A stretch of DNA of 64,000 bases, taken from contig NC_087250.1 of NCBI RefSeq assembly GCF_037042905.1, positions 21,330,001 to 21,394,000 of the forward strand, written 5' to 3'. This document shows, in pieces, positions 6,055-60,876 of this stretch (within the stretch, counting starts at the first letter, position 1; the number at the start of each line of letters is the position of its first letter). Origin of the DNA: Lytechinus pictus (Eukaryota). The notes below the pieces were generated by a model. That model saw only the letters and a program-made list of their open reading frames with translations, was not told where the DNA came from and made no database searches. Position numbers and translations under genes: made by a program.

Positions 6055-7210
6055 GACAGAAATGATAATACACAAATTGTAGGTTTGCCGAAAAATCAAT
6101 TAAAGATTAAGAAAGTGAATATAATTTCAAGTTTTGGATATGTGATTTCATAACCGAGCAGTTGTTTCATATTTTGATTAATATAAAATGCCTAAATTAA
6201 AATGTTTTACTTTGTTTGAGATGACTTATTTTTGTATTCTCTTTAGGAGCCGATGTGAAATAATCGGACTATTGATGTACTCGTGATACAGTAAAACCTA
6301 CATTTAAATTTTCTGAGAAAGTGGCCTTTCGCCGATTATTTTACCATACGATATGAGGATAAACTGCTCGCATTACGTCACAAGTCAAACTGCTACTTTT
6401 ACAATGAACGCTTTTTCAGGGTGAACCAAATTTTAATAAATGGCTTGTAATTCTTTGGCCGGGTAGTCTATTAAAGGCGCTTGATCACAAAAGTCATGTG
6501 TTGTGTCCTTGGTCACGGCACTTGTGTCCGTGAGCAAGGAATTTAATCAACAATTTTATTCTTCATTCAAACACATGACAATGATAGAGCATTATTTATA
6601 TATTTATGTGTGCACTTGTTTAAAAACATCAATGAATTTTATTCAGTAGAATAGAAATGGTTTTGTAGTGTTCTCCTGAATTTCACAGTCATTTGCATAA
6701 TTAATTACTTCAAATTTATTCAAAACTACTCTTCAGCCTTGTAGTTTACAGCCGGCCCTAGGCATTTTGTGCGAATTTTTGCGACTGGAACACGAAGGTT
6801 AAGATTAATTGCCGATTGAAATGGCCTATCAAGATCATCGTTGCATTCGTATTTTATTCAGTAGGCTATCGAGGAACCAATCAGAATTGTTCTTTCATAT
6901 TAGCGATTAGTTGATAACCTGTGTGTTACAGGCCCCAATAGTCGAGATCGGAAGAGGGGGTGAATTTGATCTGGTCTTGCCCATTTCAAATAATTATGAC
7001 CAAAACAGAGTGATATTCATTCTCAGACACGTTAACCAAACGCTTCAGTGCCTCAACAAAATTAGACTTACAATCGATTATAACTTATAAAGTAAAAGAA
7101 AAAAAGCGAAAATGGAACTTGTTTATTTATAATGTGAATGTGTCCTATGAAGTTATTAATCACTCATTAATAAGCTATCTTGGCCGATTCTTAAAAATGC
7201 AGTTTTCACA

Positions 7211-7393
7211 ACTGGGCGTTGTGGCGTGCGCCTGTAATCCAAGCTATGTGGGGAAGTTACAAATTGATGCAGAGGTTCGAGGTACGAGCCCTGGTCACGT
7301 CTTTCGGATGGTGACGTAAAAGGTCGGTCCCAGACGTAAATAAACATATCTGATTGATACACGTCTGACAAAACTCAAATACACACACACACA
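7211..7393 (+). mobile_element. SINE with 7SL (SRP RNA Alu-domain)-like head, copy 1
   Basis: Head ACTGGGCGTTGTGGCGTGCGCCTGTAATCCAAGCTA, B-box-like motif, 3' stem CAGACGT/ACGTCTG and a (CA)n tail. A second copy is at 30282. Confidence 0.7.
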
Positions 7394-7486
7394 AACGAAT
7401 TAATGGTAAAAACGGTTTTAATCGATTACAATATTGATATTATATAATAAAAAAAAATAATATAATTTATTTATACAAAAATAAAC

Positions 7487-8178
7487 GGAGCCGTGGCCGA
7501 GTGGACTAAGGCGCCTAACATCACTTTTAAATGCACTGTCAATGATTATAAAGTCATTCATCTTTTTTTTATTTTTTTTTATTATGTTTAAAGGCTTTTC
7601 AGTCTTTTTAGACTATTTAATCTGGGGTGATTCTTTAAAATGCAGCTTTCATAAGAAAGGTAATGGTTGAAGCAAAAGTACTTTGTTATATTAGCAGATT
7701 TCTGTCATATTATTTATTTATTGTTGGTTTGAAATTTTTTTAAATTGATTTCAACATTGATAAAAAATTATAATTACTTTATACAAAAATAAAATAAAAC
7801 AATTTTATTGTCATAGTTTTAAGGCGCCTGGCAATACATGGAAAGTCCGGGGTTCGATCCTCGGCGGCGGTACCAATGCCTGTTTTTAATCGATAATGGT
7901 CTTTTATCCTGCATTCAAATAAATGAACATGCTATACACACTCTTGGTAACTAGGTGTGCACTTGTAAAAAAAATAGTTGATAAAATTAAAATAACAAAT
8001 AAAACAAGTAACTTTAATAATACAAAAATAAAATGAGTCATAACCGAGCGGTCTAAAGGGCCTGACAATACATGGAAAGTCCGGGGTTCGATCTTCGATA
8101 ATGGTCTTTTATCATGCATTCAAATAAATGAGAATGGTATACGCATTTTGGTAACTAGGTGTGCACTTGCTAAAAAGA
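7487..8178 (+). mobile_element. Two degenerate copies of the same tRNA-derived SINE, the first interrupted at 7517-7819
   Basis: A-box at 7495, B-boxes at about 7850 and 8085, and a shared 3' end GGTAACTAGGTGTGCACTTG. A more decayed copy lies at about 6456-6627. Confidence 0.6.
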
Positions 8179-8678
8179 AATAAAAGCTCAAATTTGTTTC
8201 ACTGTCGAAATTGTTACTTTGAACAGTCGAATGCATTGAGAAATCTGTCTCGATCCAGACCCCCATGATCAATACCATAGTTTGCTATCAACAGAAACAT
8301 GCCGATAACCAATCAATATCGTCGTCAAACGCTCAATCTGTTCCTAAGATTGGACTATCAGGCATTTAGATTTGTTCTTTCATTCTTGTGATTTAAATGG
8401 GTAGCGAACAACACTGACTAAAACTTTGTGTAGTGTCTCATTGATTCTGTTCATGTTTTAAGAATGGCTACTTTAGTAGGGTTATCCCACAAACACCTAA
8501 ACACAAAATCCAATACCATACATGAATGGCTAGTCTTAAAATATACATTTTGTTAAATTAGACGAACTAAAGTTGATTTAACAAATTATTCTCTTCCTCT
8601 CTCTCCCACTTTCTTCCCCCCCCCCTTTCCCCCACAAACACCCACGCACACAATCCAACACTATGCAATAATTTCACT

Positions 8679-11623
8679 GGTTCTAGGACAACTACCCCCT
8701 GGACAATCACCCCCCGGACAACTACCCCCCGGACAATTACCCCCCGAGGACAATTACCCCCCGGACAATTACCCCCCGAGGACAACTACCCCCCGAGGAC
8801 AATTACCCCCCGGACAACTACCCCCCGGACAATTACCCCCCGGACAACTACCCCCCGGACAACTACCCCCCGGACAATTACCCCCCGGACAATTACCCCC
8901 CGGACAACTACCCCCCGGACAACTACCCCCCGGACAATTACCCCCCGGAAAATTACCCCCCGGACATTTACCCCCCGGAAAATTACCCCCTGGACAATTA
9001 CCCCCCAGACAATTACCTTCAGAAAATACCCCCTTCTCTCCAGCATCAATGTTAGAATAAGGCGGGACCCATTGTAAGTTTTGGTTGGTGGCACAGGTTT
9101 CCGAAATATTTTCTACTTTATCTTACGTTAATAACTTTTTCTTTCTCTTTTATATTGCTCTTTCTCCTGTTTTCTCACTTTCTTCTTTTTTACTTTTTTG
9201 TTTTTGTTTAGCGGCGCCTTCTGCATCATGAAAAATGGGGGGGGGGGGGGCTTGCACCCGAAACCTCCCGTTTGGCTATGCATATATACATCAGAAAATT
9301 TGTAAACTGGCCCTCATTCTAAGTTTTCATAGAACAATTGAACACGATTAGTCATAATAATCACATATGCTGAATATCCCTGATTCCAACTGATCTGATT
9401 TTTTTTAATATTTATTTTGGGTTTAATTTCAGGTAAGAAATCAGGCAAATAGATAAAACGTAAAAAAAACCACCTTAATAGGTAGAAAAATTGAAAGTCG
9501 ATAACGCAACTATGAACACTAATACTGTCAAGTAGACCTATAAATCTGTTTTTTTAACAGTTCAACTAACAAGAAGCTAAGAATTATGAAACAATTGGTG
9601 CACATTCCAGATTAAGATGTGGCTTTATAACTTAATACAGTTAGCTAAAAAACGTTATGCAAAGATAATACACACAAGAACACCTTGTAAATTACAAGGT
9701 GTGTTTGTGTGTATTATTCTTGGGTGAAAGCAATTAAACATTAAAGAAGGAAATTAAGTACCAAATTTACTAAATTGTAAACAATATGACATAGTCAAAT
9801 ACAGTGTTTTTTCTATACAAATTGGCAATCATGATAGTATACAATTCGTTTAAGGTGCATTTTAAGGACGGTTTGTAAGAATTTATAAAGAAGTAGGCCT
9901 ATGCAAATCAAATAATGCGACCGAGCACCGTGAGCTAAAAATATTAATATTTAGACCATAAAACGGACATTTTACAGAGCACTTGAAAAATCAATGTGTA
10001 AATTAAAAAATAATGAAAGCTCGATATCCGAGATGAAATATGTTTTGTATATTGACTTCGAAACTTGATATTTTAAGCTCCATATCAGCCTATATTGAGC
10101 AAGATATTAATCTCATCGAAAAAGCAATGCGAGCGCGAAGCGCGAGCGGAAAATACTTGATATTCCGGTATGAAAATGGTGAATTTGAGCACTATCTAAA
10201 GCATTGTGTATGGAAATTGTGAAGTGGATGTGGAAAGCACTTAATAAATGATATCTTCATTATTATTTTGACCTAGGACCTGGACATTCTAGGTCTAAGG
10301 ACATTTTGTCATCAAATGAAAATGATGACAACTTTCTTATTCCTCTTCCTGAGCGCGATATGAAACATATGAAACTGTGATATTGTCGATATTTTTTTCT
10401 GAAAAGGGACAATTTAGTCATTAAGAATTCATGAAAATTTTATTATCATATTTATTAATGTAATAAGCCTAAATGAGTGAGTAAAATGTGTTGACACGGA
10501 GGCCTGAAAACTTGATATTTTAAGCACTTTTGTAATCATGAATAGGATTTGTGAGTTGATATATTTTTAACAAAAATGCGAGCGCAAATCGTGAGACGAA
10601 ATTTTTGGTAAACTGTCATAAAAGGGGGGTTTTAAGTAGTTTGTTATATAATTTGGCAAATCAAATAATTCGAGCGCATAGCGCAAGCTGCAAGTTATAT
10701 TCACACCATAAAACGGACATTAAACAGAGCACTTAAAAATCAGTTTGTAAATCAAACAAAATTATGAATAATGTCCGAGCTGAAATATGCTTTGTAATAT
10801 CGACTTCAAAACTTGACATTTTAAGCTACATATCAGCCTATTTAGCAAGATGTGTATCTCATCGAACAGGCTATGCGAGCCCGAAGCGCGAGCGAAAAAA
10901 ATTAATATAGTGACATGAAATATATTTTTTAATCATTTTCCAAGTCATCCCCTGACCTTTTTTTTTTCACTCGTCTCCCTCTTATTTTAACTCTTATTTT
11001 TCCTCCTTTCTTTCCCCTTCTTTTTCTTTTTTCTTTCTTTCCCCCTTTTTTCTTCATTTTTTTTGCTCTGCCGATAGGGGGGGGGGCGATCCCCTCGCCC
11101 CCCTGGATCCGCCTATGGATAGAGCTCAATTTTACAGCTTTCTTACGGCGTACGTTTGATTCCAAGATACTCGAGAATGCCTTGAGTACTTCTTACGTCA
11201 AACGTACGGCCGACGTATGACTCTGTGCACTCCCTTTGTCTATATAGGGGGTAATTGTCCGGGGGGTAGTTGTCCGGGGGGTAATTGTCCGGGGGGTAAT
11301 TGTCCTCGGGGGGTAGTTGTCCGGGGGGTAATTGTCCGGGGGGTAATTGTCCGGGGGGTAGTTGTCCGGGGGGTAATTGTCCTCGGGGGGTAGTTGTCCG
11401 GGGGGTAATTGTCCGGGGGGGTAATTGTCCGGGGGGTAGTTGTCCGGGGGGTAGTTGTCCGGGGGGTAATTGTCCGGGGGGTAATTGTCCTCGGGGGGTA
11501 GTTGTCCTCAGGGGGTAATTGTCCGGGGGGTAAATGTCCGGGGGGTAATTGTCCTCGGGGGGTAATTGTCCGGGGGGTAGTTGTCCGGGGGGTGATTGTC
11601 CAGGGGGTAGTTGTCCTGATACC
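8679..11623. mobile_element. Foldback (TU/Mutator-like) non-autonomous transposon with 15-bp minisatellite TIRs
   Basis: (GGACAAYTACCCCCC)n at 8686-9017 and inverted at about 11245-11617. Termini GGTT/TACC and a perfect 9-bp TSD AATTTCACT (8670-8678, 11624-11632). Confidence 0.9.
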
Positions 11624-12360
11624 AATTTCACTTTGGGATGTATGTTTTTATTCGTGTTATTGATTATTACAACGCGCCCTCTCGCGCTCAAGATTAATTA
11701 CTTATACGTTCAATCATTTTTACACAATGATAAAACACGAATGAATTGAATAAGATTATGAATGTGATACATCCTACTTCAACCATGAACAGCTCTAACT
11801 TGTTCCAAACATCTCAACACTGATTGTATAAAATGACCGTCATACGTACGGAATTGTTTATATTAGTTGTTGACATTGTCACATTGTCTTTGTATTTTAC
11901 AAACAATCTTATAACCATAGGAAAAAAAGGGAAATATTTTTTTATGTACTTTTCATATTGCGATTAAAAGAGTTAAGCGTGCAAATAGTACTGTTATATT
12001 AATGAATAAAGCTAAACTCGTTATTCATGTTTGGTCATTTTCCATATGTCGTGGGTAGGACAATAAAGAGCAGTCAAGACGCCAAAAGATTGAGTTGTAG
12101 TCGATCTTTTATTTTACAGCCAGATCAAAGTGTCATGAAAACGAAACCAAAACAAACAAAAACCCTGCAAAGACATGATAAATACAATAAGTAAGTACAC
12201 TGTGCTACAAGGCAGTCATATTCTGTAATATACATCTTAGTATTGCATTGAAAATTTATATAGATGTTTTTGTAGTAATATTAAGTGTTTCAACAAATAT
12301 GAAATTTATAATCTTTCTAAGTTCAATTTGTAAATAATATTAAAATCTTCAGTTATAAAA

Positions 12361-21270: not shown

Positions 21271-22531
21271 CTATATTCATGAAAGAAAGTTATGGGTGCA
21301 AGAAATCACAATAATATGGGGAATGCTTATCAAAAAGTATTTGCGTGTCTTGTAAATATATTTTATTTTTGAGGTGGATATGCTTGTAATATTGGAATGT
21401 GTCGTTTGGATTGAATAATTTTTTTTTACTCTTCCCTTCGGAAATCAACATTAATACTTTATAATGCAAAAGTGTTTGAAACATTATTCCCTTTGGAGTT
21501 AGCGCATTGCAAGATTCCATGAGAGTTTGCAATAACGGATATCAAGATCATGGTTCTCCAAATATCATTTCAAATTGAAACGCGATTTGTGTGCAAGTGT
21601 CATGTATATATGTTGAACATGCGTTTCGGCGACCACCTCACCCTAACAAATGTAATTGTTTGGCCTGCAGTTAACGTGAGATGATTGTGACGAAGTGAAT
21701 TTACTCAAACGAGTTTAAATGAATACATTTTGAGAATTGTATTGGTCGACTTGGTGACAAATATAATAAATAAAAACGCAATACTCTTCATCTGTTTAAC
21801 AAAATGCCATTTTAAAGCATGATGTGCTGATAAATTATGGCTTTGTCGTTTAATTTGCTAAATGATGGGGGTGGCACTTAGGGCCATTTTCAAAGAAGTT
21901 AAAACAGAATTACTGCGAGAGGGAGCTCGATATCCCCGAAGGTGACATTCTGATTGTCAGATCACTTTCATAAGATTAACAAATTAATGATATAATAATA
22001 ACAGTCCATATTCAATATAATAACTTTACCAAAATGGAACTATTTGTTCTGAGATGTACATTTCAATGTTGTGATAAGACAAACATATTACTCCCTCTTC
22101 GTCCAACTCTTTTAAGTAAATCTTAAAGGAAAAATCGGACCTTTTTCGAAATACTATAATTGTCACGTGTTTGATATTGTTTTAGAAGAGTTTTCAATTT
22201 AAGCTTAATAAGTTTGAATCATTTTGATTAACACAAGTAAACATTAATATTTTATGAAAATGATGCAAATACAATATTGAGAGAAATTGGGGGAAATACA
22301 CCAACGTATCGAGTATTCAATATTTTGAATTTGGAAATAACAAATAGTATTAATCTGTTTTTTCAATTGTGGTATTTAATGTTTACACAAATTCTGTAAT
22401 TGGTTTAATAGTTTAAGTAGCTGAAATGTTAGCCCTGGTGCAAATTAGTTACAGGGGGATTTCTTGTAATGTTAACGCTTTTGATTGATGTACCTTAATG
22501 ATAACAAATACTGTTTAAAGCAAGAACATAC

Positions 22532-23049
22532 TTTACGCATTCCATCGTCTTCACATGTCTGCAGCACTCAATGAGATAAACCAAGTCATCCTCGTCTGTA
22601 CACTTCACCCTGTCCAGATAGAGCCACTGTAGGTTCTTTGTATGTTTCTTAATGAGCAGACTCAGTCCTCTCAAGGTCTCTCGAGATACGCGACACTGTT
22701 CTAATGGAAGTGAGTCCAGATTGCGAAGGATAATGTGTTTGAGATTTTGTCCTCCAGTCCGACGAAGACCAGCCGTGATAAAGGCTATGTCTCCCTCTGC
22801 ATCATCGATAGTGATTTTAATATATACCAAAGCAGGGAGTGATGAGATCAGACCTTCATAGAATTGTGACGTCACTCCATCAGTTGATAGCTTTGTGATG
22901 GATGGTAGCTCAGGAGGAGATGGAGGGAAATCGATAGATGAGTCTGAGATGGTGAGAGAATTTAGCATCGGGAATGATTTAAGGCAGGCCCATAGTCCAA
23001 CTGTCACAGCGGTTGCCATGATAGACTGCTCGAATTGTACACTCACAAC
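22532..23049 (-). CDS. NLR gene, leucine-rich-repeat-like exon
   Basis: LxxLxI/L motifs (LNSLTIS, ITKLST, LVYIKI, LKHIIL, LQWLYL). Acceptor aatag|GTT is phase 0, matching the NACHT exon end. Donor AA|gtatgt. Confidence 0.85.
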
Positions 23050-23496
23050 CTATTAAGAAGATGAAAGAAAAATTGAAATAAGCAGCATAGGAAGGAGAAC
23101 CAGTGATTTTTTTTATTTTTTATGCTAACTGAAACATTCAACGCGTATTATTTAACCATTCAGAAACATTGAGTATCGTACCATTTATTTATATTTCCCA
23201 TAGGACTATGCCCTCCAATAGACAGAAAAGAGGGTAAGAAAAGACTTAGAATACCCGGCTTTTATTGTTTAAACTCTGAGTTGTTTACTGTTTGGTATGT
23301 GTTTGGTTCATCCATTTATGTATTCGTATTTATCTGTTATGGTATTGCTGATTCATTTGGTTTAATCTAAATGATTACATCGGTCAATACTGCGCTATTT
23401 GGTATATCAAAAGTAGGCCTATATACAGTACTGTATAATATATGAAGCATAACGTTATGGCCTATATCTGGCAATCATGACTTTGCATTAGAATAC

Positions 23497-25076
23497 CTTC
23501 TGTTTCAGCTCACGTGGAAGATTTCGCATCCCAACGATAGTATACACTGTTGGTGACTTTAAGATCATACATCGTGACGTCACACATCTTCGTACCAATG
23601 ATGACACATTCCCATCGTTGACCCCAGACTCTGATGAACAATCTAGGAGAATACGATATCGCTCACTCTCAGATAAATAACTATTTGTAAGGACCTTCTC
23701 CATTATTCTAATGCAGAGATTGTTCTTCGTACCAGAAGCAAATCGAATAAGATTTTCATATTCTCCAATGCTGGTTTTTATATCACGCAGTACTCGGTCT
23801 AACTTACTGGACTTCAACAACAAAAGAAAGCGGTTTGTTTCATCGGCAAGATACTTTCCTGCTGCATGTTCTTGAGCAAGTTTGTGATAAAACTCAATAC
23901 TAGTTATGGAAGTCGAAAATGCTTTGTCAAGTTGTGGAAGGCGTCTGGTTGAAACAACAGTCTTTGAGACTATTCCTAGGGCGCATGCCATATCAAGAAT
24001 AGAGGGAACTCTCTGAAAATCACAAGACGAGAAAACTAACTTCTTAGCATCATTGATCAGACCAGTGAGAGCAATTTCTCCCAGTTTCAGTATTATTTTG
24101 TTTAGTTGTTTGGGAGTTTTTATTAAGCCAGGTGTCCGGGCATTTGCGTGGAGCATTAAAAATACGTTAACTTGGTCGAGTAATGCTGTTTGAGTTGTAG
24201 TGTCACGCTGAAGTAGTTCTTCAGACCACAAGTGACAGACAATGAGGCAAAATAGCGGAGTTTTTACGAGTTCCTCAATAAGGGGTTGTTCATCGAGGTA
24301 AACTTTCAGACCATCCGCTTTCATAGGTTTCTGAACAGAAGTAAAGAACCTGTCAATGTAATCGCGTGCGTTCTCTCGCGAGAACCCTTCGATCTCCATC
24401 TTTGTGTACACCCTTGGTAGAACCCCTTGACTTAAAATGTCTTCTAGGTGAGGTCGTGTTGTTACAAGAACTCGACATTGTTGAAACATTTCCCATCTGA
24501 GAATGCTCATGATATTGCTTGAGGAAGAGATACCAGCATACTCATCAAGCCCATCTAGTACAATATGACAGATTCCCTGATGTTGTCTTATGAAACTTTC
24601 TAGCCCCTCTGGCGTCAGATCATCAACATCACTCAGGAGTTGTGATATGATAGCTTCTCCAATCGACGTACTGTGGCTTGTGTTTCGAAACTTTACAACA
24701 AACAAAAGTGGCAAGTCTTCTAATCCTGACCCTTCCTCGCTGTGAACCCAGTCGTATGCCATCTTAGCTACAGCTGTCGTCTTTCCTCGTCCAGCTGGTG
24801 CCGAAATAATGATTCGAGATGGAAACTTTCCGTCTACTTTTGCTGAAAATATTTTTCCAACAGAGCCTTGCAGTATTTCCTTTTCTTTAATATCTTTTCC
24901 TCGAGCGTCCTTCTTTACCATGGTAACAACGGTGTGCATTCCCTTAAACTCTGCATAATCATCTTTGTCCCAAGGTTTCATTTGGATTTTGCACAGCCGA
25001 TTCGAGTATATATCTTCCAAGATTGTGCGACATTTTCCAACAGTCAGAGATTTCGAAATCTTTTCACTGTAGATAT
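23497..25076 (-). CDS. NLR gene, NACHT NTPase exon (NACHT, HD1, winged helix, HD2)
   Basis: Walker A ISAPAGRGKTT, Walker B IVLDGLDEY, sensor-1 LVTTR, PLFC motif and winged-helix FYHKLAQEH. Acceptor ttccag|AT at 25076 and donor AAG|gtattc at 23497. Confidence 0.95.
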
Positions 25077-25539
25077 CTGGAACGATGTAAGAAAAACATT
25101 GAGCAAAATGAATTAAACCACGTTACATATGTCCTTAAAAACAAAGTAAATACATGAATATAGGTTATTCAAAATATGAAGACACTCAATACGACAGTAA
25201 TAAAATATCAAAATGAAAATCGGTAGAATGTGTACAAAATGAAACAAACCCCTGGGGCAGGAAAAGTGATGAAAGATACTTTGAATCTAAACTTGTTGCA
25301 GATATATTTTCACTACGTCAGTGTCTAAGTCCCATTATACAATGAGTATTAATAATACACAGGATAAGGCCATTACAGCTTTAGAAAATATGCCTTAATC
25401 ATAATAAATTTTAAAGATATTATTGGTTCATATAGATAATTACATATTCTGCGGTCTCCGCTATCAGATGACAGCAAATAAGTTAAATTTGCGTCAATTA
25501 GAATATAATATTTGATAATTACATGCTCTTTTCATATAC

Positions 25540-28146: not shown

Positions 28147-29105
28147 GGAGTGTTCTCGATAAAACGGCGTGGGTAGCCGTTGCTGTATGTGTGCTCTTTC
28201 TTTCGGGAGTTCAGGTGGGTTGGTTATAATACGTGCTGCTCTGTCGAACAGGCATTTAACAAGACCCTTCTTGACTGATTTGTCGTGATGCGAATCATAT
28301 GGTATGTATTGGTCTGTATGAGTGGGCTTGCGGTAGAAAGAGGTGGAGAGTTTCCCGCCCTCGTGTCTTTGGACTAGACAAGTGTGTCAAGGAATGCTAA
28401 TTTCCCTCCTTGCTCAGTCTCCAGAGTGAACTGGATGGACGGTTGGTGGCTATTCATGTAAACTATGCGAATTATGAAAGTGTCATCGACATATCTCTTC
28501 CACACCCGGGGGCGGCATGTGGAAGGACACTTGGGCAAGGCGTTCTGTTCAAAACCTTCCATATACAGGTTAGCCACAACCACTGAGACTGGGCTACCCA
28601 TTGCTTCTCCTTCTGTTTGCTCATAGAAAGAGCCTCTGTACAGAAAATATGTGGATCTGAGGACGAACTCCAGGAGTTCGGCTATTTGTTCAGGCATAAG
28701 TGTGGTACGTTCTGCTAATGTAGGGTTGGATTGCATGCGTTGCAGGGCCGTACTGCATGCGCCCTCTATCGGTACGTTGGTGAAGAGGGAGACTACATCA
28801 AAAGAGATCATGGATTCTTGTTTGTTAATTGTCTGCTCCGATGTGAATTCAGCGAATTCACTGGAGTTGGAAACCGTGTGTTCTGAGCAGTTAGTAGGAG
28901 GGGACAGGATGTCCGCCAGGTACTTTGATAGGTTATAGGCAAATGAGCCTATGCATGATACTATTGGTCTGAGAGGTATCTCGGGTTTGTGTATTTTGGG
29001 CAACCCGTATATTCTAGGTGGCTGTTCCTGTGTGGGCTTTATCTTTCTGTATGTAGCCTCATCTAGAACTTTGTCTTTCTTTAGTGCCAGTAACGTACTG
29101 GTCAG
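28147..29105 (-). mobile_element. Penelope-like element reverse transcriptase (disrupted)
   Basis: YGLPKIHKPEIPLRPIVS, SFDVVSLFTNVP, AMGSPVS, RYVDD and FLD, then frameshifted YRKPTHTDQY and NGYP. Confidence 0.9.
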
Positions 29106-29200
29106 CTGGCAGAACATGCTTGGGAAAAGCAACACCACCCAGATTGGGACGGTGTACATTGCGTTGCCAAAGAGAGACATTGGTATACACGCATGATTAA

Positions 29201-29803
29201 AGGTCAAGTCCACCTCAGAAAAATGTTGATAAGAATAAACAGAGAAAAATCAAACTAGCATAATGCTGAAAACCTCATCAAAATCGGATGTAAAATAAGA
29301 AAGTTATGGCATTTTAAAGTGTCGCTTATTTTTCCCAAAACAGTTCTATGCTCACCTCAGTGATATGCAAATGAGAGAGTTGATGATGTCACTCACTCAC
29401 TATTTCTTTTGTTTTTTATTGTTTGAATTATACAATATTTCATTTTTTTACGGATATGACAATTAGGACCATCTTGTTTGAACCACAAAATGTTAAAACA
29501 ATCAAATCCTACATGTTAAGGGGGGAATGAAACTTTGCTGACATGACATTGAGGGGAAAATTCAAATATTTCATATTTCATATAATAAAATACAAAAGAA
29601 ATAGTGAGTGGGTGATGTCATCGGTCCCCTCATTTGCATACTGACCAGGATGTGCATATAACTGTTTGGTGAAATTTAGCAAAACTTTAAAATGTCATAA
29701 CTTTCTTATTTCAGATCCGATTTTGATGAAACTTTCCGTGTTATTCTTGTTTGATTTTTCTCTTTCTATTCAAATCATCTTTTTGTTGGGGTGGACTTTT
29801 CCT
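29201..29803. mobile_element. TTAA-specific non-autonomous element (Kolobok-like)
   Basis: TTAA|AGGTCAAGTCCACC...GGTGGACTTTTCCT|TTAA with long imperfect internal symmetry. Related fragments lie at about 50.6-51.05 kb and 52.4-52.9 kb. Confidence 0.8.
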
Positions 29804-30281
29804 TTAAGGAGGCTATTAGTATACGTCTTTGTCCTAACAACTTCAACAGAGACAGCGGGATCGCATCCCCGATTTCTGGATGCGAACCATCCGACAACAC
29901 AATATTCCCTTACCAGGCAGTGCACGCCGACCCGATCGTTCCCGGCCCCGAGTGAGGGACCGCTCAGCTAGTCAACCCCACCCACGGGAAACTAGCAAGC
30001 CCGCCAATTTTGTCTTATTTGCACATTGCCGACTCGCGGCGTATATGCATATACCTCCGGCTTATTTGCATATACGCCCGACCAATCACATAACGGATCA
30101 GTGCCCACCTATTGTTCCCGCGTTCGTGCGTACGGTCCTGGGGGTTGGTATAAATAGACTACGTTGTCAGACAACTGATATAGATTGAACATAGATTGAA
30201 GGGAAAGCAAATTTACAAGGCAACAATAGTCAAAACTGACTAGTTTGCCTATTTAAAATAACAACAACAACAACAACAACA

Positions 30282-30466
30282 ACTGGGCGTTGAGGCGTGC
30301 GCCTGTAATCCAAGCTTTGTGGGGAAGTTACAAATTGATGCAGAGGTTCGAGGTTCGAGCCCCGGTCACGTCTTTCGGATGGTGACGTTAAAGGTCGGTC
30401 CCAGACGTAAACAATCATATCTGATTGATCCACGTCTGACAAAACTCAAATACACACACACACACA
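30282..30466 (+). mobile_element. SINE with 7SL-like head, copy 2
   Basis: About 95% identical to 7211-7393 in unrelated flanks, with B-box GGTTCGAGCC, directly after an (AAC)n tract. Confidence 0.7.
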
Positions 30467-35187: not shown

Positions 35188-36291
35188 TATATATGAAAAA
35201 GGGTTATGCCTATTCTAGCATGGACTAGGAGGTCCATCTGGTCATCCATCTTGAAAAAAGCAGAATGCACGAAAACTCCCACCTATCAAAGGCTGAATTA
35301 CTCGTATGAAGATCTTAAAAGACTCTCAGTAAACTCTGCCAAACTCGAGAAAAGATCGCAATCACTCGAGCAGTATACTCGGTACTACTCGTTGATAACT
35401 CTTCTTGACTCGTACTGCGCTCTGGTTAATCTGTCAAACTTTCCTGAAAATGTACCATTTTCCCCCCGAGCTTCCGCGAGTTGGAACTCGCGGAAGCTCG
35501 CAGAGACTCTTACACACAACTCGGCTCTGTGTGCTAGTGAACACTTTTTGCGAGAGTGATCACGAATTTCCTTGTTGACCATAGTAGATTGCGAGACAAA
35601 TGAATACCCTCTAGCGATTATGAAATGAACTGTCAAATATTGGTTTTGCCCTTCTGAACATGCTCAAGGCCATGATTTAATGAGCCTGGTTAGATAATTG
35701 AGATGTTCAAAGGGGGTTGATATGCTAGAAAGTACAGAACACACATCAGTGCTGCATGCATGCAAACTGGGAATGGGCTGAAAACACAACTGTTACGTAA
35801 TAGACTGTGTATTCAAAACCACTGAAGAGAGACCATTTATTTTTCATAGAAGTTAAAACATGATATGAGCTTCTAGTTCCATACATTTCATTGAGAATAA
35901 TTTCATTTTTTGAACTAATTAAGCCGAATATCGTAGGGACATTGTTTTGGGGACGCGCGGAAGAGCGTGCATTTTAAACATGCAGCCCCCCCCCCCCAAA
36001 AAAAAAGGGGGATTATAAGGGGTAATAAATGACAACAAATATTGATCTACGCCCCTGTTCTGTTCATTATTTGCATAATGCTAATCAGGTTCACACACCT
36101 ACATTGGTTTATGACATTAATTTTTTAATCATAAAATTGAACAAATATATTCATTCAACATGATACCCTTGAATATAGCAAACGATACATCTGTTTTCAA
36201 TGGGGGAGCCGGGTCGGGAAGTTCATGATACATATTGATGCAATATTCTCATTTCAATGTAAAAAAAATAGAAGGTCTAGATAAAACCAAC

Positions 36292-36597
36292 CTGGAGTAT
36301 TCAATGTCTCTTTGAGATAAGTTTCAGCAAGCATGACAAGCTTGGCATCAATAAGAGCTTGTTTCAGGCTAGGGTGCTGATTGAATGGTTCCACGGTCTG
36401 TCTCCAGTCAAACAGCATGTCACATGTTCCCTTGCACGTGACCTGGTTTCCCTTGTTATTGGTCGATGTGTATCTATTGATGGCTGCTTGCTCGAATTCG
36501 AGGGTTCGTGCCAATGCCTCCATCTGGTCATCTGTCTCGATGTTTTCAGCTAGCTTACAGAGAAGATTATCGGTAATACCCCCGTGAGTCGCCATGC
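36292..36597 (-). CDS. NLR gene, Death-domain exon copy 2 (306 bp, phase 1-1)
   Basis: About 96% identical to copy 1 with the same splice sites. Its phase-1 end joins the NACHT exon in frame (G+AT = Asp). Confidence 0.85.
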
Positions 36598-37627
36598 CTA
36601 TCGTGCGATAAATACAATTAGATTTGATCTTTTAAACATATATTTCTATACTTACATGTATAACCTTTTTTTTCCATGGAGAAATATAATTTGCTTCTGG
36701 TAAAAAAAAAAAAAAAAATGGGGCCTCATTTTAATTTGGATGCACGCCCCCGTCTATTTTTCCTGACAAAAAATACAAAAGAAAAATAAATGCATTATAA
36801 AATCTATTAATTCCCTGAGCCATTTAATCACTAATGAATATTCAAACTTCAAATGTTTTACGATCGACAATATTATTTGGGATATACATGCAAAGGTAGG
36901 ATCAAACATTACTGTTTGTCCGTTTCAACCCACAATCACGAAAGGGGGCGTTTTCTCTTTAACTTTAGTATATATATATTTTAGTATAATTATATATATA
37001 TATTATATATTTCAGTATTATATACAATGAGAAAGAGGACCAAAGAAATCACAAGAGTGAGCACTAAAATGCATATATAAGTTATGTGATAAAGTAATGA
37101 GATACTGTTTAAAAAACATGCTTTTTAACGAAATATATCATTCAGGTTTCAAATTTGAGTTAAATACTGTATTTTTAGAACTTAAAACATGATATGAGCT
37201 TCTAGTTCCATACATTTCATTGAGAATAATTTTATTTTTTGAACTAATTAAGCCGAATATCGTAGGGACATTGTTTTGGGGACGCGCGGAAGAGCGTGCA
37301 TTTTAAAAATGCAGCCCCCCCCCCCCCCCCCCGCAAAAAAAGGGGGGTTATAAGGGGTAATAAATGACAACAAATATTGATCTACGCCCCTGTTTTGTTC
37401 ATTAGTTGCATGATGCTAATCAGGTTCACACACCTACATTGGTTTATGACATTAATTTTCAAATCATAAAATTGAACAAATATATTCATTCAACATGATT
37501 CCCTTGAATATAGCAAACGATACATCTGTTTTCAATGGGGGAGCCGGGTCGGGAATATCATGATACATATTGATGCAATATTCTCATTTCAATGTGAAAA
37601 AAAATAGAAGGTCTAGATAAAACCAAC

Positions 37628-37933
37628 CTGGAGTATTCAATGTCTCTTTGAGATAAGTTTCAGCAAGCATGACAAGCTTGGCATCAATAAGAGCTTGTTT
37701 CAGGCTAGGGTGCTGATTGGATGGTTCCACGGTCTGTCTCCAGTCAAACAGCATGTCACGTGTTCCCTTGCACGTGACCTGGTTTCCCTTGTTATTGGTC
37801 GATGTGTATCTATTGATGGCTGCTTTTTCGAATCCGAGTGTCCGTGCCAATGCATCCATCTGTTCATCTGTCTCGATGTTTTCAGCAAGCTTACAGAGAA
37901 GATCATCGGTAATACTACCGTGAGTCGCCATGC
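37628..37933 (-). CDS. NLR gene, Death-domain exon copy 1 (306 bp, phase 1-1)
   Basis: Translates to MATHGSITDDLLCKLAENIE...ALARTLGF...MLFDWRQ...LKQALIDAKLVMLAE, a Death-fold pattern. Acceptor gatag|GC ATG and donor CCA G|gttggt. Confidence 0.85.
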
Positions 37934-38450
37934 CTATCGTGCGATGAATAAGATTAGATTGATCTTTTAAACATAGATTTATAGACTTACATGTATAACA
38001 TTTTTTTCCTTGAGAAATACAATTTGCTTCTGGTTAACCAAAAATAAAATAAAAACGGGGCATCGTGTTTATTTGGATCCACATCCCCGTCTATTTTCCT
38101 GACAAAAAGAATCAAAAGAAAAATAAATGCATTATAAATCTATTAGTTCCCTGAGTCATTTAATCACTCATGAATATTCACACTTCAGATGTTTTATGAT
38201 CGACAATTTGGGTTATAAATGCAAAGGTATGATCAAACATTACTGTTTGTCCGTTTCAACCCACAATAGTGAAAGGGGGCGTTTTCTCTTTAAACATACA
38301 TCTCAATATTCCGAGGTATGGGAAAATGTGACACATGCAGGAAACAAATAGAAATAAAAATAAGCGGTAATAAATGGAAACAAATAATAATCTATATCCA
38401 AGGTTAATCTTCATTGTACCTTATCAGGTATACACCCTAAAAGTTGTTAA

Positions 38451-41299: not shown

Positions 41300-44200
41300 T
41301 AACCCCTCCAGTGTACCTGACAAATCCAAGATGGCGCCCAAAATGGCTGCCGTAGACTAAAAATCCACAATTCATCTAAGTGGCTTTAATTTGGTTTTTA
41401 TTCAATTTTTTTTAGGGTGAAGTAGTAAATTGGAACAAGTTACAAGGACAGCCAGTGGTCTGGTGTGTCCAAAAATCCAAGATGGCTTCCAAAAATGGAG
41501 TTTGAAATGGCTGTTGATAATAAAATCCACATAGTTCATTTCATATCCGCCTGGTACATAATGATTTTGGTGTTTATACCATGTTTTCAATGGTCAAATA
41601 AGACATTGGGGTAAATTTCAAGGACAGTCAGTGGTCCAGTATGTTAAAAAATCCAAAATGGCTTTAAAAAATGGAGTCTAAAATTGTTGTTGCTACTTTA
41701 AAAAACCCGACATACTTTGTTCAATATCCAGAAATATGATTTTTGTGTCTCTGCCATGGTTAAATGGGTCAAATAATACATTAGGACAAGTTACAAGGAA
41801 AGTCAGTGGTCTGGTTTGTGCAAAAATCCGCTATGGGTTCCAAAAATTGATTCTGAAATGGCTGCTAATAATTAAAGCGGATATGACTCATTTCATTTAT
41901 CGCCTGGGAGATGTGACTTTATTGTCTAAACCACAGGTTTCAAGGGTCAAATAATGCATTAGGATAAGTCAGTGATCTGATATGTCCAAAAATCGAAGAT
42001 GGCTTCCAAAAAATTATCTTAAAAATAGGCTGCTTATTCTTAAAGCGGACATAGCTTATTTCATATCGGCCTGGGAGATGTGATTTTGGTATCTAAACCT
42101 CTGGGTTTCAAGGGATAATTAATACTTCAGAGTAAGTTACAAAGACAGTCAGTGGCCTGGTTTGTCAAAAAATCGAAGTTGATTTCCAAAAACTGATTAT
42201 AAAATGACTGCTGATACCTAAAAGTGGCATAGCTCAATTTATATCCGCCTGTGATTTGATATATGTGTCTATAAACTATGGTTTTAAGGGTCAAATCATA
42301 AATTAGGACAAGTTACATTGACAGCCAGTGATCTAGTATGTCCCAATTCCAAGATGGCTTCCAAAAATGGAGTAAAAAATGTCTCATGTTACTCATAAAA
42401 GGGCAGTTTATTCAATATCTGTCTGGGGAATATGAGTTCGGTGTCTAAACCATGGTTTAAAAGGTCAAGTAATACACAAGGGTAAGTTACAAGACCAGTC
42501 AGTTGTTTTGTAATTATGTTTAAAAAATCCCAGATGACTTCACAAATGGGGTAAAACTTGACTGTTGTTAGTTAAAATCATACATAGTTTATTAGAAATA
42601 CCCCTCGGAGGTATGATTTTACTGTCTAAACTAAAGTTTAAAGGGTCAAGTAATACATTGGGTTAAATTAAAAGGACAGTCAGATGTCAGGTATGTCCGG
42701 AAATTGACGATGGCTTTAAAAAATGGGGGTCTTAAATGACTGTTGTTACTTAAAATTGGATATTACAAATACACATTGGGGATATTATTTTGGTATCTAC
42801 ACTAGGGTTTTAAGGGTAAACAAAAATACTTTGTGACTGGTTACCATGATATGCAGTTATCCATTTTGCCTTAAAATCCAAGTTGGCTGTAAAAAAATGG
42901 GTTTTAAAGTGACTGCTGTTACTTAAAAATTGATATAGTTCATACAATATCCACATGTGAGAAATAATCTTGGTGCGTACACTGTAATGCATGGGGATAT
43001 GTTATCATATTGTTTCATGAGCTGGTAACAGCACCCATTTTAATGAATTTTAGAATCCTCCATGGATTTTTTTTTTCAAAATGGAATACAAACTATCCTC
43101 GTTACTTGTCCGAATGCATAATTAAAATTGGTTGTTATTTGGTCATTATTTCGAATTGTTTATTCTGTTTTGATACATTTATTTCATATTCATTCCATAT
43201 CCTCATTTATTTTCTTCATTGATGTATAAGAAAAACCATCAGGAGAGACGGATACTTAATATTTTTGTTGTTATCGTTTTTTGTTTATCCATATATTTTA
43301 GTTAAGTTTTTCTTATTCTCTCCTTCTTGTTCTCCCCCTTTTCCTTTAATGTATATTGCCTAAGTATGCTATCCATGTTCTTATTTAATATGTTAGTTTT
43401 TTGTGAGCATTGTGTTTCTGTTTGTTCTGCTGCTCAAATCTGTCCTTCTTTCACTCTTCATCCCATGATTTCTTTTCCTTTCTAACAGTCTTCTGACCAC
43501 ACCGTTGGCTTCAGTAAATCTTCACCGTTTCGCCATGGCTACGCTGAATGATCATATTGCTTTTAACTCTATAACAGACAATGATTTATTTGATTTGTTC
43601 AGGTCCTCTCCTAGTCCAAGCAGCACAACTCCATCAAATTCTTTAGGTACTTATGATGATTATATAGCTGATCAAATCAATTCATCGGCCGAAGAGTTGC
43701 TGCTTAATCTTGGTCAACACGATCCAGCAAATAACCATTTTAGTAAATATATTACAGTTTCTCAATTTGACAACATTACCATGAACTTTAACTGTGACAC
43801 ACTCTCTCTTCTTCATCTTAATATAAGAAGCCTGAACAGACACTTTGATGAATTACAGATGCTTTTAAATAATCCCTCTCCTAAACCATTATCTGTTATA
43901 GGTGTAACAGAGACTTGGCTTTCACAGGACTCCAACCTTCCACTTTCTATTGACAATTATAACCTTGTTACTAAAAACCGGCAGGGGAGATTGGGTGGAG
44001 GCTTCGCGTTGTATATTCTTCATTAATTCCGTTATTTTATCCACGAAACAATTTCAATTAGTAATGATATAATGGAATCTCTTTTTCTAGAAATTGAAGT
44101 TTCAGGTGGTAGGAATGTTATTGTAGGTGTTGTTTACCGCCCTCCCAGCTCTAATGGTAACGATTTTATTGCTCGTTTATCTGACATACTTCGAAATGAT

Positions 44201-47200
44201 ATATTTAAAAGTAAAAATTGTTTTATTATGGGAGATTTTAATATAAATATTCTTAAATGTGCCTCTAATAATATTGCGCATGAGTTTATAGAAACATTTT
44301 TGTCTGCCTCTTTCTTGCCACTCGTTACCAAACCCACTCGTGTTGCAAATTTATCTAGTACATTAATTGATGATATTTTTTCCAATGTTGTTCCGCATCA
44401 TGATTCATACATTATTCTTTCAGATACAACTGATCATTACCCGATAATGACTTCCTACAAATTATCGCAACCCAATAATATTCACAGCCCCCGCCCTCTA
44501 CGACGTATAGTTAACGCACGGAATTTATCCAGATTGAATGATAGTTTAGAAAATGTGGACTGGTCTTGTGTTCTTGATTCAACTGATGTTAACTCTTCAT
44601 ATGATAATTTTATTACTTTACTTAATAGGCACATGGATACCTTTCTTCCAAAACAAAGAAAAAACAACAACAATGATTACAAGAAAACTCCTAGACTTCC
44701 TTGGATATCAAAATCTTTACTTCGTTCAATAAACCGAAAAAATAACCTATATTATAAATACAAATCAAAACCTACTGAAAAAAATAGAGAAAAATATACA
44801 TATTACAAAAACACTTTAACGAGAATAATTCGCTTAGAAAAGAAAAAATATCTTACTAATAAACTAGAATTACATAAACATGATATGCGAAATACTTGGA
44901 AAATTCTTAAACAAGCTATGAACATAGCGGATAACAAAATTGATATACAAAAATATCATCAAATTATATTGTTATTCAGGATTTTGATAACATAGCAAAT
45001 GCTTTTAATACTCATTTTTCTTCCATATGTAAAAATTTGGCCAACAATATACCGCCCTCTCGCGGGCATTTCTCTGATTTTCTTGTTCCCTCTAACCCGG
45101 GCTCGATCTTTTCAAATCCAACGCATATTCATGAAGTCATGGACATTGTTTCTAACTTAAGCAACAAGAAAAGCTCTGGATACGACGATATCAATAATAT
45201 TATAGTAAAATAAATTATTCCATTCATTGTTGTTCCCCTAGTTCAAATTTTTAATTTATCTTTAACTAACGGGCAAGTTCCTGATTCTATGAAAATCGCT
45301 AAAGTTATCCCATTGTATAAAAAGGGGGACAGGCTGAGCGTTAATAATTATCGTCCAATCTCTTTACTACCGTGTTTTTCAAAAAAAATTGAAAAAATCA
45401 TAAATGTTCGAACTTTCACTTTTTTAAAAGATCATGATATATTCTCAAATTTTCAATTTGGCTTTAAAGAAAAACACAGTACCGTTCATGATCTGTTGTC
45501 ATTCATTGAAAATGTAGCTCATGCCTTAGATAAGTCTTCTCATATGGTTGGTATATTTCTGGACTTCTCCAAGGCCTTTGATACAATCAATCACGAAATA
45601 TTACTCAGCAAACTTCTTCATTATGGTATACGTGGCAAGGCCTTGGAGTGGTTCAGGAATTACATTTCCAATCGAAAACAATTTGTTTCACTGAATGACC
45701 ATTCTTCCAACTTATGTGACATTAATTGCGGTGTGCCACAGGGAAGCCTTTTGGGACCTCTTCTTTTCATAATATATATTAACAATTTTTGCAGATCATC
45801 TGAAATTTTGTCTTTCATAATCTTTGCTGATGACACCAATTTATTTTTTTCTGATAAAGACCCACACACTCTTGTTCAAACAATCAATCAAGAACTGTCT
45901 AAAATACTCGAGTGGATTAGATGTAACAAACTTTCTCTTAATATTGAAAAAAAAAATACATGTTGTATAGTAACACCCAAAATTCATTATCTAATAGTAT
46001 TAGTATTAGGTTTGATAATTTTCAATTGGAATGTGTATCGAATATTATTTTTTTAGGTGTCACTGTAGATAATAAACTTTCTTGGAAGTGTCATATTGAC
46101 AGTATTTGCAAAACAATTGTTCGTAATATTTGTGTCATGAATAAATTAAGAATGTTCCTCCCGTCGACTTCCTTACTCACACTCTACTCTTCTTTAGTAT
46201 TACCATATCTTCACTACGGTCTTCTTATATGGGGAAACACACATCAAACTTTACTTAACAGGATTTTATTGCTGCAAAAGAAAGCACTTCGAATTGTTTT
46301 TTCTTCTCATGTACGTTCCCACACTGATCCCATTTTTTTCGAAAACAAACTTTTGAAGATCAGTGATCTTTACCTACTCCAGCTTGGCCAATTTATTACC
46401 AATACAATAATAATATGGTTCCTTTTATTTGTCACGACTTGTTCTTGAAAACAACTCCTCACACAATTACCCTACTAGACGTCGCGATGACCTTCATTTG
46501 CCTATGCTTAGAACGCTGTTCGCCCAAAATACATTTATATATAGGGGCCCAAAATTTTGGAACTCTCTCCACCCTGATATACAGTTTTCCCCTTCTCTGA
46601 ATTCATTTAAAAGAAAATTTAAATTCACTTTGTTGCAGTCTTACAAAACTTCACATTGATTCCTTTACCTCTACAATTTATTTATTTATTTATTGTTTAC
46701 CTGTTTACAGGTTACCCTCGGTGATTGTGTTAGATTGACTACACTTCTCTCATTCTCTCTCTCTCTCCCTCTCTTTCTCTTTTTGCCTTTCTCTTTCTCC
46801 ATTTCTTCCTTCTTCGGATTTACGCAGTTTGTGCAGCAATGTTTGTTGTCTTGTGTGTCTTATTTTGGTTGTTGTTTTGTTTTGTCTTCATGTCTTTTTT
46901 GTTGTCTCTGCTCACCTTTTAATATTAATTTCCTTTATTATAATTATTTTTTATATCTTTATTTCATTATCTATTTTGTATTGCTGCCTGCTTTTGGCCC
47001 ATATAGATTTAAGTGTTATGCTTTTGTTTTCTTCTTGAGTGGTCCACACTTTACAAGCTTTGCTTTTTAGTGGGCCACTCCATTTTTTCAACATATCTTG
47101 CATATTGTCATTATCAAATTGGAAATATTATCTTCTGTATCAGGTGTATATTCTTTATATTTGGTTTATTTGAATATTTATGTCATTTATATTTTCTGAT

Positions 47201-60668: not shown

Positions 60669-60701
<33 letters not shown>

Positions 60702-60876
60702 AAGTTCACACCTAGTTACCATTAATGCATATAGCATTTCCATTTATTTGAAAGCAGGATAAAAGAGCATTGTAGATTAAATGCCTTGCTCACGGGCATA
60801 GCTGCCGCGGCCGGGGATCGAACCCCGGACTTTTTCATGTATAGCCAGGCGCCTTAGACCACTCGGCCACGGCACC
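60669..60876 (-). mobile_element. tRNA-derived SINE, full length with poly(A)
   Basis: The minus strand reads GGTGCCGTGGCCGAGTGGTCTAAGGCGC (A box), GGTTCGATCCC (B box), a CCGTGAGCAAGGCATTT core and a long A tail. Confidence 0.8.

Follow-up and report, generated by a model that had tools for sequence, protein, structure and literature searches.

A short interspersed element with a 7SL-like Alu 5' domain as its head in the sea urchin Lytechinus pictus

Introduction

How does a sea urchin genome come to hold a short repeat whose 5' end looks like 7SL RNA, and by what route might such a repeat have spread? SINEs derived from 7SL are described from supraprimates, hagfish and the shrew mole only, as three origins that are all vertebrate (PMC13023118, 2026), and the words "invertebrate" and "urchin" are absent from the accessible text of that paper (papers are given here by PMC number and are cited throughout for their accessible parts). 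A sequence-only reading of a 64,000-nt stretch of Lytechinus pictus DNA (hereafter the window) had described two copies of a chimeric 7SL/tRNA/core SINE and had listed, as the main known 7SL SINEs, those of primates, rodents and their relatives and of hagfish; the list is right in those cases and omits Urop of the shrew mole (PMC13023118).

We present an analysis of both copies and of three relatives that carry other heads. The reading to which we lean, with somewhat better than even confidence, is that a 7SL 5' domain was grafted onto an older tRNA-headed, Deu/Nin-like SINE and that the product is predicted to spread via SRP9/14.

Results

Two dispersed copies and a clean insertion

The element and its parts are placed in the window as follows, L001 to L003 being three metagenome loci that are treated below.

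7211..7393, plus strand: SINE copy 1, full length; with it excised, the flanks match a paralogous empty site without a gap
7211..7257, plus strand: 7SL-like head of copy 1, equivalent to the Alu 5' domain (helices 2, 3 and 4, U-turn, loop-loop bases); RF00017 positions 1-44, E 4.8e-6
7258..7280, plus strand: linker of copy 1, likely a tRNA-head remnant, with a 7-nt tandem duplication extending into the B box; 9/10 match to the L003 head, weak
7281..7291, plus strand: tRNA-type B box of copy 1 with one mismatch, T>A at 7284
7294..7330, plus strand: core of copy 1, similar to the start of the Deu/Nin domain; 24/28 columns against AmnSINE1, by eye
7331..7367, plus strand: 3' stem-loop of copy 1, a predicted LINE reverse-transcriptase recognition signal; z -3.40, common to L001-L003
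7381..7393, plus strand: (AC)6A tail of copy 1, from the sequence; its last 4-5 bases are also a possible target-site duplication
7620..7667, plus strand: paralogous empty site of copy 1, within a tandemly repeated unit; aligned over 48 nt at 77%, ungapped at the junction, E 1e-4
30282..30466, plus strand: SINE copy 2, full length, adjoining an (AAC)7 run on its 5' side
30282..30328, plus strand: 7SL-like head of copy 2; RF00017 positions 1-44, E 1.5e-5; reciprocal change at pair 12-36
30352..30362, plus strand: tRNA-type B box of copy 2, intact by motif match
30365..30401, plus strand: Deu/Nin-like core of copy 2; 23/28 columns against AmnSINE1, by eye
30402..30438, plus strand: 3' stem-loop of copy 2; z -5.64, 0/200 shuffles as good
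30452..30466, plus strand: (AC)7A tail of copy 2, from the sequence; its last 3-4 bases are also a possible target-site duplication

The two copies, both on the plus strand, are identical at 175 of 183 bases, with eight differences and no gap (blastn, 95.7% over 186 nt), and their flanks cannot be aligned to each other, which bears out the earlier description of two dispersed copies of about 183 bp, some 95% identical in unrelated flanks. Neither blastn (word size 7) nor nhmmer (--max) found a third copy or a fragment in the window except CA runs. At 183-185 nt, and built of a head, a body and a simple-repeat tail, the element is short, interspersed and non-tandem in the sense of SINEBase (PMC3531059). 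In a run search, 17 of the 18 sequencing runs listed (three coded organisms, with no RNA run among those listed) contained 0.05-0.39 of the query words, which is word sharing only and is not counted as evidence here.

Copy 1 occupies one unit of a locally repeated segment, and once it is excised the flanks line up, ungapped, with the sister unit at 7620-7667; copy 1 is therefore a clean insertion. Of the two marks by which a SINE insertion may be recognised, a target-site duplication or an empty site, it is this ungapped paralogous empty site that the element displays. Target-site duplications, which the sequence-only reading had suggested looking for, are seen at most as direct repeats of 4-5 nt at the junctions of copy 1 and 3-4 nt at those of copy 2, which overlap the CA tail and are thus ambiguous in length; repeats of 3-5 nt fit short duplications at tail-like targets. 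Both copies are preceded by ACA, a hint of target preference. The (AAC)7 run just 5' of copy 2 (30260-30280) is possibly the tail of another retroelement.

The head matches the first 44 positions of the SRP RNA model

All 4,227 Rfam families were searched with 401-base queries. The best match for the head of copy 1 was to positions 1-44 of 299 of Metazoa_SRP (RF00017), aligned to element positions 1-47 at 29.6 bits, and the best match for the head of copy 2 was to the same positions at 27.9 bits, with model position 1 coinciding with the 5' edge of the repeat in both. The gathering score of this model is 70 and both scores lie below it, as expected for a fragment; because of this cut-off, the heads are absent from the scan of the whole window at gathering score, which returned no matches. 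The Rfam tRNA model (RF00005) gave no match to either head at E<=10, and in a control of equal search size a tRNA-headed SINE at 60803-60876 matched it at 19.7 bits (E 0.14). The mir-1268 model also matches the head of copy 1 (E 0.002). By eye, 28 of the first 30 head bases are equal to those of the printed copies of hagfish SINE1-1_EBu (PMC7245038).

The match covers the Alu 5' domain only, and neither copy holds any 3' part of 7SL. Judged by its match to the Metazoa_SRP model, the head is very probably of 7SL origin. The earlier claim of a head that matches the Alu 5' domain of 7SL is thereby supported. The label of an Alu-like 7SL head has to be narrowed to the 5' domain of the Alu fold, a complete Alu domain being absent, and the head sequence quoted in that reading is that of copy 1, copy 2 differing at element positions 12 and 36. 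With respect to published classifications, the element has the 7SL-homologous 5' end of SINE1 in the broad sense (PMC7245038), at the E values listed above. SINEBase sets minima of 60% identity and 60 nt for the likeness to tRNA, 5S or 7SL, with exceptions permitted only where Pol III transcription has been demonstrated (PMC3531059), and the SRP match, which spans 47 nt, falls short of this length.

Fold, U-turn and loop-loop pairing of the head

In human Alu RNA, the 5' domain comprises nt 2-47 and is the sole part contacted by SRP14, and in the closed, active conformation SRP9 holds helix 5 as well (PMC4238359). The urchin head, at 47 nt, equals the 5' domain in length, and helix 5 is missing. 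Twelve of the 14 Rfam pairs are canonical in the head, and the outer-helix pairs 1-47 and 3-45 show two-sided changes relative to the Rfam consensus. As the sequence-only reading had claimed for the U-turn, G4, U23 and G24 are retained in both copies, along with the loop partners 13-15/33-35, and these bases correspond to the triad and pseudoknot bases of BC200 (PMC12265939; numbering offset inferred). Pairs 11-15/33-37 are complementary in both copies, so that a U-turn triad and complementary loops are both found at the level of sequence only.

The sole two differences between the heads fall at positions 12 and 36, as a reciprocal swap from U-A to A-U, and pair 12-36 belongs to the only register in which both copies form an unbroken run of five loop-loop pairs. 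In simulation, two random substitutions struck one of the 17 predicted pairs and left it Watson-Crick in 0.5% of trials. The swap is no more than suggestive as evidence of pairing, being one event that was noticed post hoc. The human Alu 5' domain has only three interloop pairs, as against five in archaea and bacteria (PMC8137916; PMC4238359), and pair 12-36 need not be one of the three. Shuffled sequences fold as stably as the head (z 0.09 and 0.05), and helices 2-4 are partly displaced by other pairings in the unconstrained full-length MFE structure; MFE folding leaves pseudoknots and protein out of account.

Differently headed relatives and the junction

An exact 22-base core pattern, scanned over metagenome and viral contigs, was found at three metagenome loci (L001, L002 and L003) and in no viral contig, and a second pattern was found in neither viral contigs nor prokaryote genomes. 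From element position 48-59 through the tail, the element can be aligned to all three loci at 77-87% identity, whereas their likeness to the 7SL head is at chance level in each case (1060-1392 of 2000 shuffles score as high). A perfect B box is present in L002, and L003 carries a tRNA-type A box upstream; L001 lacks both boxes, and its B-box region scores no better than many shuffles (417/2000 as good). Neither Rfam nor ARAGORN credibly assigned the heads of L001-L003 to tRNA, so those of L002 and L003 are counted as tRNA-like by their match to the usual A- and B-box consensus. Two further features of these loci may be recorded: a MITE-like insertion at L002 81-437, with inverted ends matching at 14 of 15 bases (by eye), apparently splits the tRNA-like head, and L003 has a 9-nt duplication at about 316-333, inside the loop of the 3' stem-loop, with the stems intact.

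Since the relatives share the body and tail and carry other heads, it is likely that an older tRNA SINE received the 7SL head as a graft. The most economical account is an exchange of heads, by which the 7SL 5' domain came to adjoin the 3' portion of a tRNA head, the putative junction being at or shortly past position 47. Past this point, the linker matches the L003 head marginally (114/2000 shuffles as good) and has no homology in L001 or L002. The B-box region of the element is homologous to those of L002 (3/2000 shuffles) and L003 (1/2000). Its B box lies at element positions 71-81, the human 7SL counterpart being at 76-86 (PMC7245038). The perfect tRNA-type B box that had been claimed is present in copy 2, and copy 1 departs from it by the substitution at 7284. 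The 7-nt tandem duplication (7272-7285; 30343-30356) produces a second, imperfect B box directly upstream of the main one, and in copy 1, where the main box carries the mutation, this upstream box has stayed intact.

Core, 3' stem-loop and tail

The core is nearly invariant across the five sequences (copies 1 and 2 and L001-L003). The counts of 24/28 and 23/28 columns given above refer to the start of the printed AmnSINE1 Deu domain (PMC7245038, Fig. S4), and the core motif is found, again by eye, in the Deu part of BivaMD-SINE1 and is absent from BivaMeta-SINE1. The core thus resembles the start of the Deu/Nin domain, in a match of about 30-40 nt as against 70 bp in the shortest member described. 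The sequence-only reading had likened this core to the Meta-SINE domain, a label that we reject, as the core has no extended likeness by eye to the printed Meta consensus (PMC7245038, Fig. S4) or to BivaMeta-SINE1, and no 66-bp Meta domain behind a tRNA head, as in MetaSINEs, was seen by eye. A core hairpin, likewise proposed earlier, does not exceed shuffles (7294-7315, z -1.65, 14/200 as good).

The 3' stem and the (CA)n tail of that reading fare better, the tail being present in both copies and the stem-loop being more stable than shuffles in copy 1 (z -3.4), copy 2 (-5.6), L002 (-4.4) and L003 (-2.7), and weak in L001 (-1.28). Across the five sequences, 96% of cells pair in the 3' stem-loop. 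None of the 20 pairs in the body and tail stems changed on both sides among these sequences, and for this reason the 3' stem-loop is without confirmation from covariation. A comparison of the tail with LINE ends, which had also been proposed, gave no LINE fragment within the 64-kb window that shares it.

Neighbourhood of the copies

The window holds a broken LINE with endonuclease and reverse transcriptase at 43469-46448 (plus strand) and a second reverse-transcriptase fragment at 28374-29249 (minus strand), which we take to be Penelope-like, both without the SINE tail. A second SINE family at 60670-60876 (minus strand) has a tRNA head with A and B boxes, which gave the RF00005 match of 19.7 bits (E 0.14) used above as a control, and a poly(A) of more than 30 nt; decayed copies of this family stand in tandem at 6440-8200 (plus strand), around copy 1 of the 7SL-headed element. 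Pieces of an NLR immune-gene cluster lie on the minus strand at 22495-25122, 36254-36631 and 37584-38033, with a NACHT exon and duplicated death-domain exons. Over 91% of its length, the NACHT protein at 23488-25122 matches a Lytechinus pictus protein at 100% identity; identity reaches up to 88% in L. variegatus and is near 70% in Strongylocentrotus. Two arrays of 15-nt units, at 8650-9060 and 11200-11631, lie in opposite orientation about 2.4 kb apart and are perhaps the ends of a foldback-type element.

Discussion

A proposed route of birth and spread

On the two copies examined, the evidence indicates that the element is real and young, a chimeric sea urchin SINE headed by a 7SL 5' domain. 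Of the chimera put forward by the sequence-only reading, the 7SL-like head, the tRNA-type B box, the conserved core, the CA tail and the invertebrate host all stand; the Meta label falls away, and the likeness to Alu narrows to the 5' domain. Dispersion, SRP homology, a body common to differently headed relatives and a clean insertion are observed, and from these we infer the remaining steps.

At its birth, template switching would have grafted the 47-base 7SL 5' domain onto an older tRNA-headed SINE, an event with a precedent in SINEs whose 5S rRNA head is fused to part of a tRNA head (PMC4824008); chimera formation has also been proposed for the birth of hagfish SINE1 (PMC7245038). Pol III would then transcribe the element from a hybrid promoter, its A box lying in the 7SL head and its B box being a legacy of the tRNA SINE. 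The head of the transcript would fold as an Alu 5' domain and bind SRP9/14, which would deliver the RNA to ribosomes making LINE reverse transcriptase, as for Alu, whose retrotransposition is lowered by 88% when the U-turn is mutated (PMC11581171). A stem-loop-recognising, non-L1 LINE would bind the 3' stem-loop and CA tail, and target-primed reverse transcription would insert the copy at sites that have ACA as their last bases. Binding of SRP9/14 and targeting to ribosomes are thus predictions of this scheme, and we judge the SRP9/14 route of spread to be moderately probable.

Other explanations

The main rival holds that the 7SL-derived head is a new Pol III promoter part only, supplying an A box and 5' structure, and that the element spread without SRP9/14 or ribosomes. 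The absence of helix 5 suits such a head, as does the report that 7SL structure is required for transcription also (PMC12265939); 5S-headed Deu SINEs were born by a like swap without any SRP role (PMC4824008), and recency alone would preserve the head in a young family. Against it, the graft stops at the 5'-domain boundary, the U-turn triad and its loop partners are intact, and the swap at 12-36 is reciprocal. We regard a purely promoter role as unlikely, and as the explanation that deserves most attention after our own.

With just two copies in the 64-kb window, and a 7SL head at none of the three metagenome loci (0/3), the element could be a chimeric retrocopy of a rare kind, or could belong to a small family of dispersed ncRNA genes, instead of being a self-propagating SINE family. 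Two full-length copies per 64 kb that share an identical junction, lie in unrelated flanks, differ in tail length and include a clean insertion make this quite improbable.

It could further be argued that the entire 5' 90 nt is a diverged tRNA-derived head whose SRP likeness arose by chance, as ARAGORN relaxed to a threshold of 80 calls a tRNA-like gene at element positions 4-93 in both copies. Shuffles receive this call as well (27/500 and 17/500), the same threshold yields 24 calls in the window, and the call on the element is gone at 85, so that we reject it as near background. Together with the silence of RF00005, an SRP match (E 5e-6) that starts at model position 1, and a head unlike the tRNA-like heads of L002 and L003, this leaves a tRNA-derived head very little weight. 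Contamination with human Alu, or transfer of a vertebrate Alu-like piece, would explain a head that resembles vertebrate Alu/7SL and matches the mir-1268 model (E 0.002), and is scarcely credible for one that is joined to a marine-invertebrate SINE body, occurs twice among sea urchin genes and repeats, and has no further Alu part behind it.

Significance

We retain the graft of a 7SL 5' domain onto an older SINE, spread via SRP9/14, as the favoured reading. A wider proposal, which we put forward tentatively and at somewhat less than even strength, is that 7SL-headed SINEs have arisen independently a fourth time, here for the first time in an invertebrate, and that the 47-nt Alu 5' domain alone would be a portable SRP9/14 module, selected for its pseudoknot, that boosts retroposition on an unrelated SINE served by a non-L1 LINE. 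Searches of the published literature listed no paper on an invertebrate 7SL SINE, and in the papers they listed Lytechinus, SINE and 7SL co-occur in reference lists only. Three body motifs were absent from the accessible supplements of PMC11481361, and the body of the element may fall within the sea urchin SINE2 families of Repbase.

A family of sea urchin SINEs that has just the 5' domain would amount to nature's own deletion experiment on whether helix 5 is needed. It also asks whether SRP9/14-guided delivery to ribosomes aids the spread of SINEs generally, beyond the L1 system, and it does so in a laboratory sea urchin genus, with tRNA-headed relatives of like body and tail as a built-in control.

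Comparison with known systems

Among the nearest known systems are the tRNA-headed SINEs L001-L003, which share the B-box region (L002 and L003), the core, the 3' stem-loop and the CA-rich tail, at 77-87% identity, and differ in having no 7SL head. DeuSINEs and Nin-DC SINEs, including the 5S-headed AmnSINE1 (PMC4824008; PMC7245038; PMC4758252), share the first 28 or so Deu columns and the combination of a new small-RNA head with a partial tRNA head, but described members hold 70-330 bp of the domain, whereas the urchin element holds about 30-40 nt and has a head that is 7SL-like, not tRNA or 5S.

The hagfish SINE1-1_EBu (Ebu1-1; PMC7245038) is likewise young and has a 7SL head on an older tRNA SINE and a non-L1 tail ending in a microsatellite. 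It carries the 5' 96 nt of 7SL plus the 3' end, and hence a complete Alu domain, where the urchin element has 47 nt of 7SL; its tail is a bipartite RTE tail with (AAC)n and target-site duplications of about 17 bp, as against (CA)n and repeats of at most 3-5 nt; and only the urchin element of the two has a tRNA B-box remnant and a Deu-like core.

Alu, B1 and Tu of Euarchontoglires and Urop of the shrew mole (PMC13023118) have in common with the urchin element the 7SL 5' domain, the U-turn and the loop-loop bases. They keep both 7SL ends around a central deletion and use poly(A) and L1, whereas the urchin element is without the 7SL 3' part and poly(A) and has (CA)n behind a stem-loop. A central deletion with both ends of 7SL retained marks all three known origins of 7SL SINEs, which has been read as a shared mechanism or selection (PMC13023118); in the urchin, what follows the match to RF00017 positions 1-44 aligns to tRNA-SINE relatives. 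Because it lacks the 7SL 3' end and poly(A), the urchin element stands outside the Alu/B1/Urop/Ebu1-1 design; its features fit SINE1 in the broad sense, and it would appear to work like the 5' half of that design.
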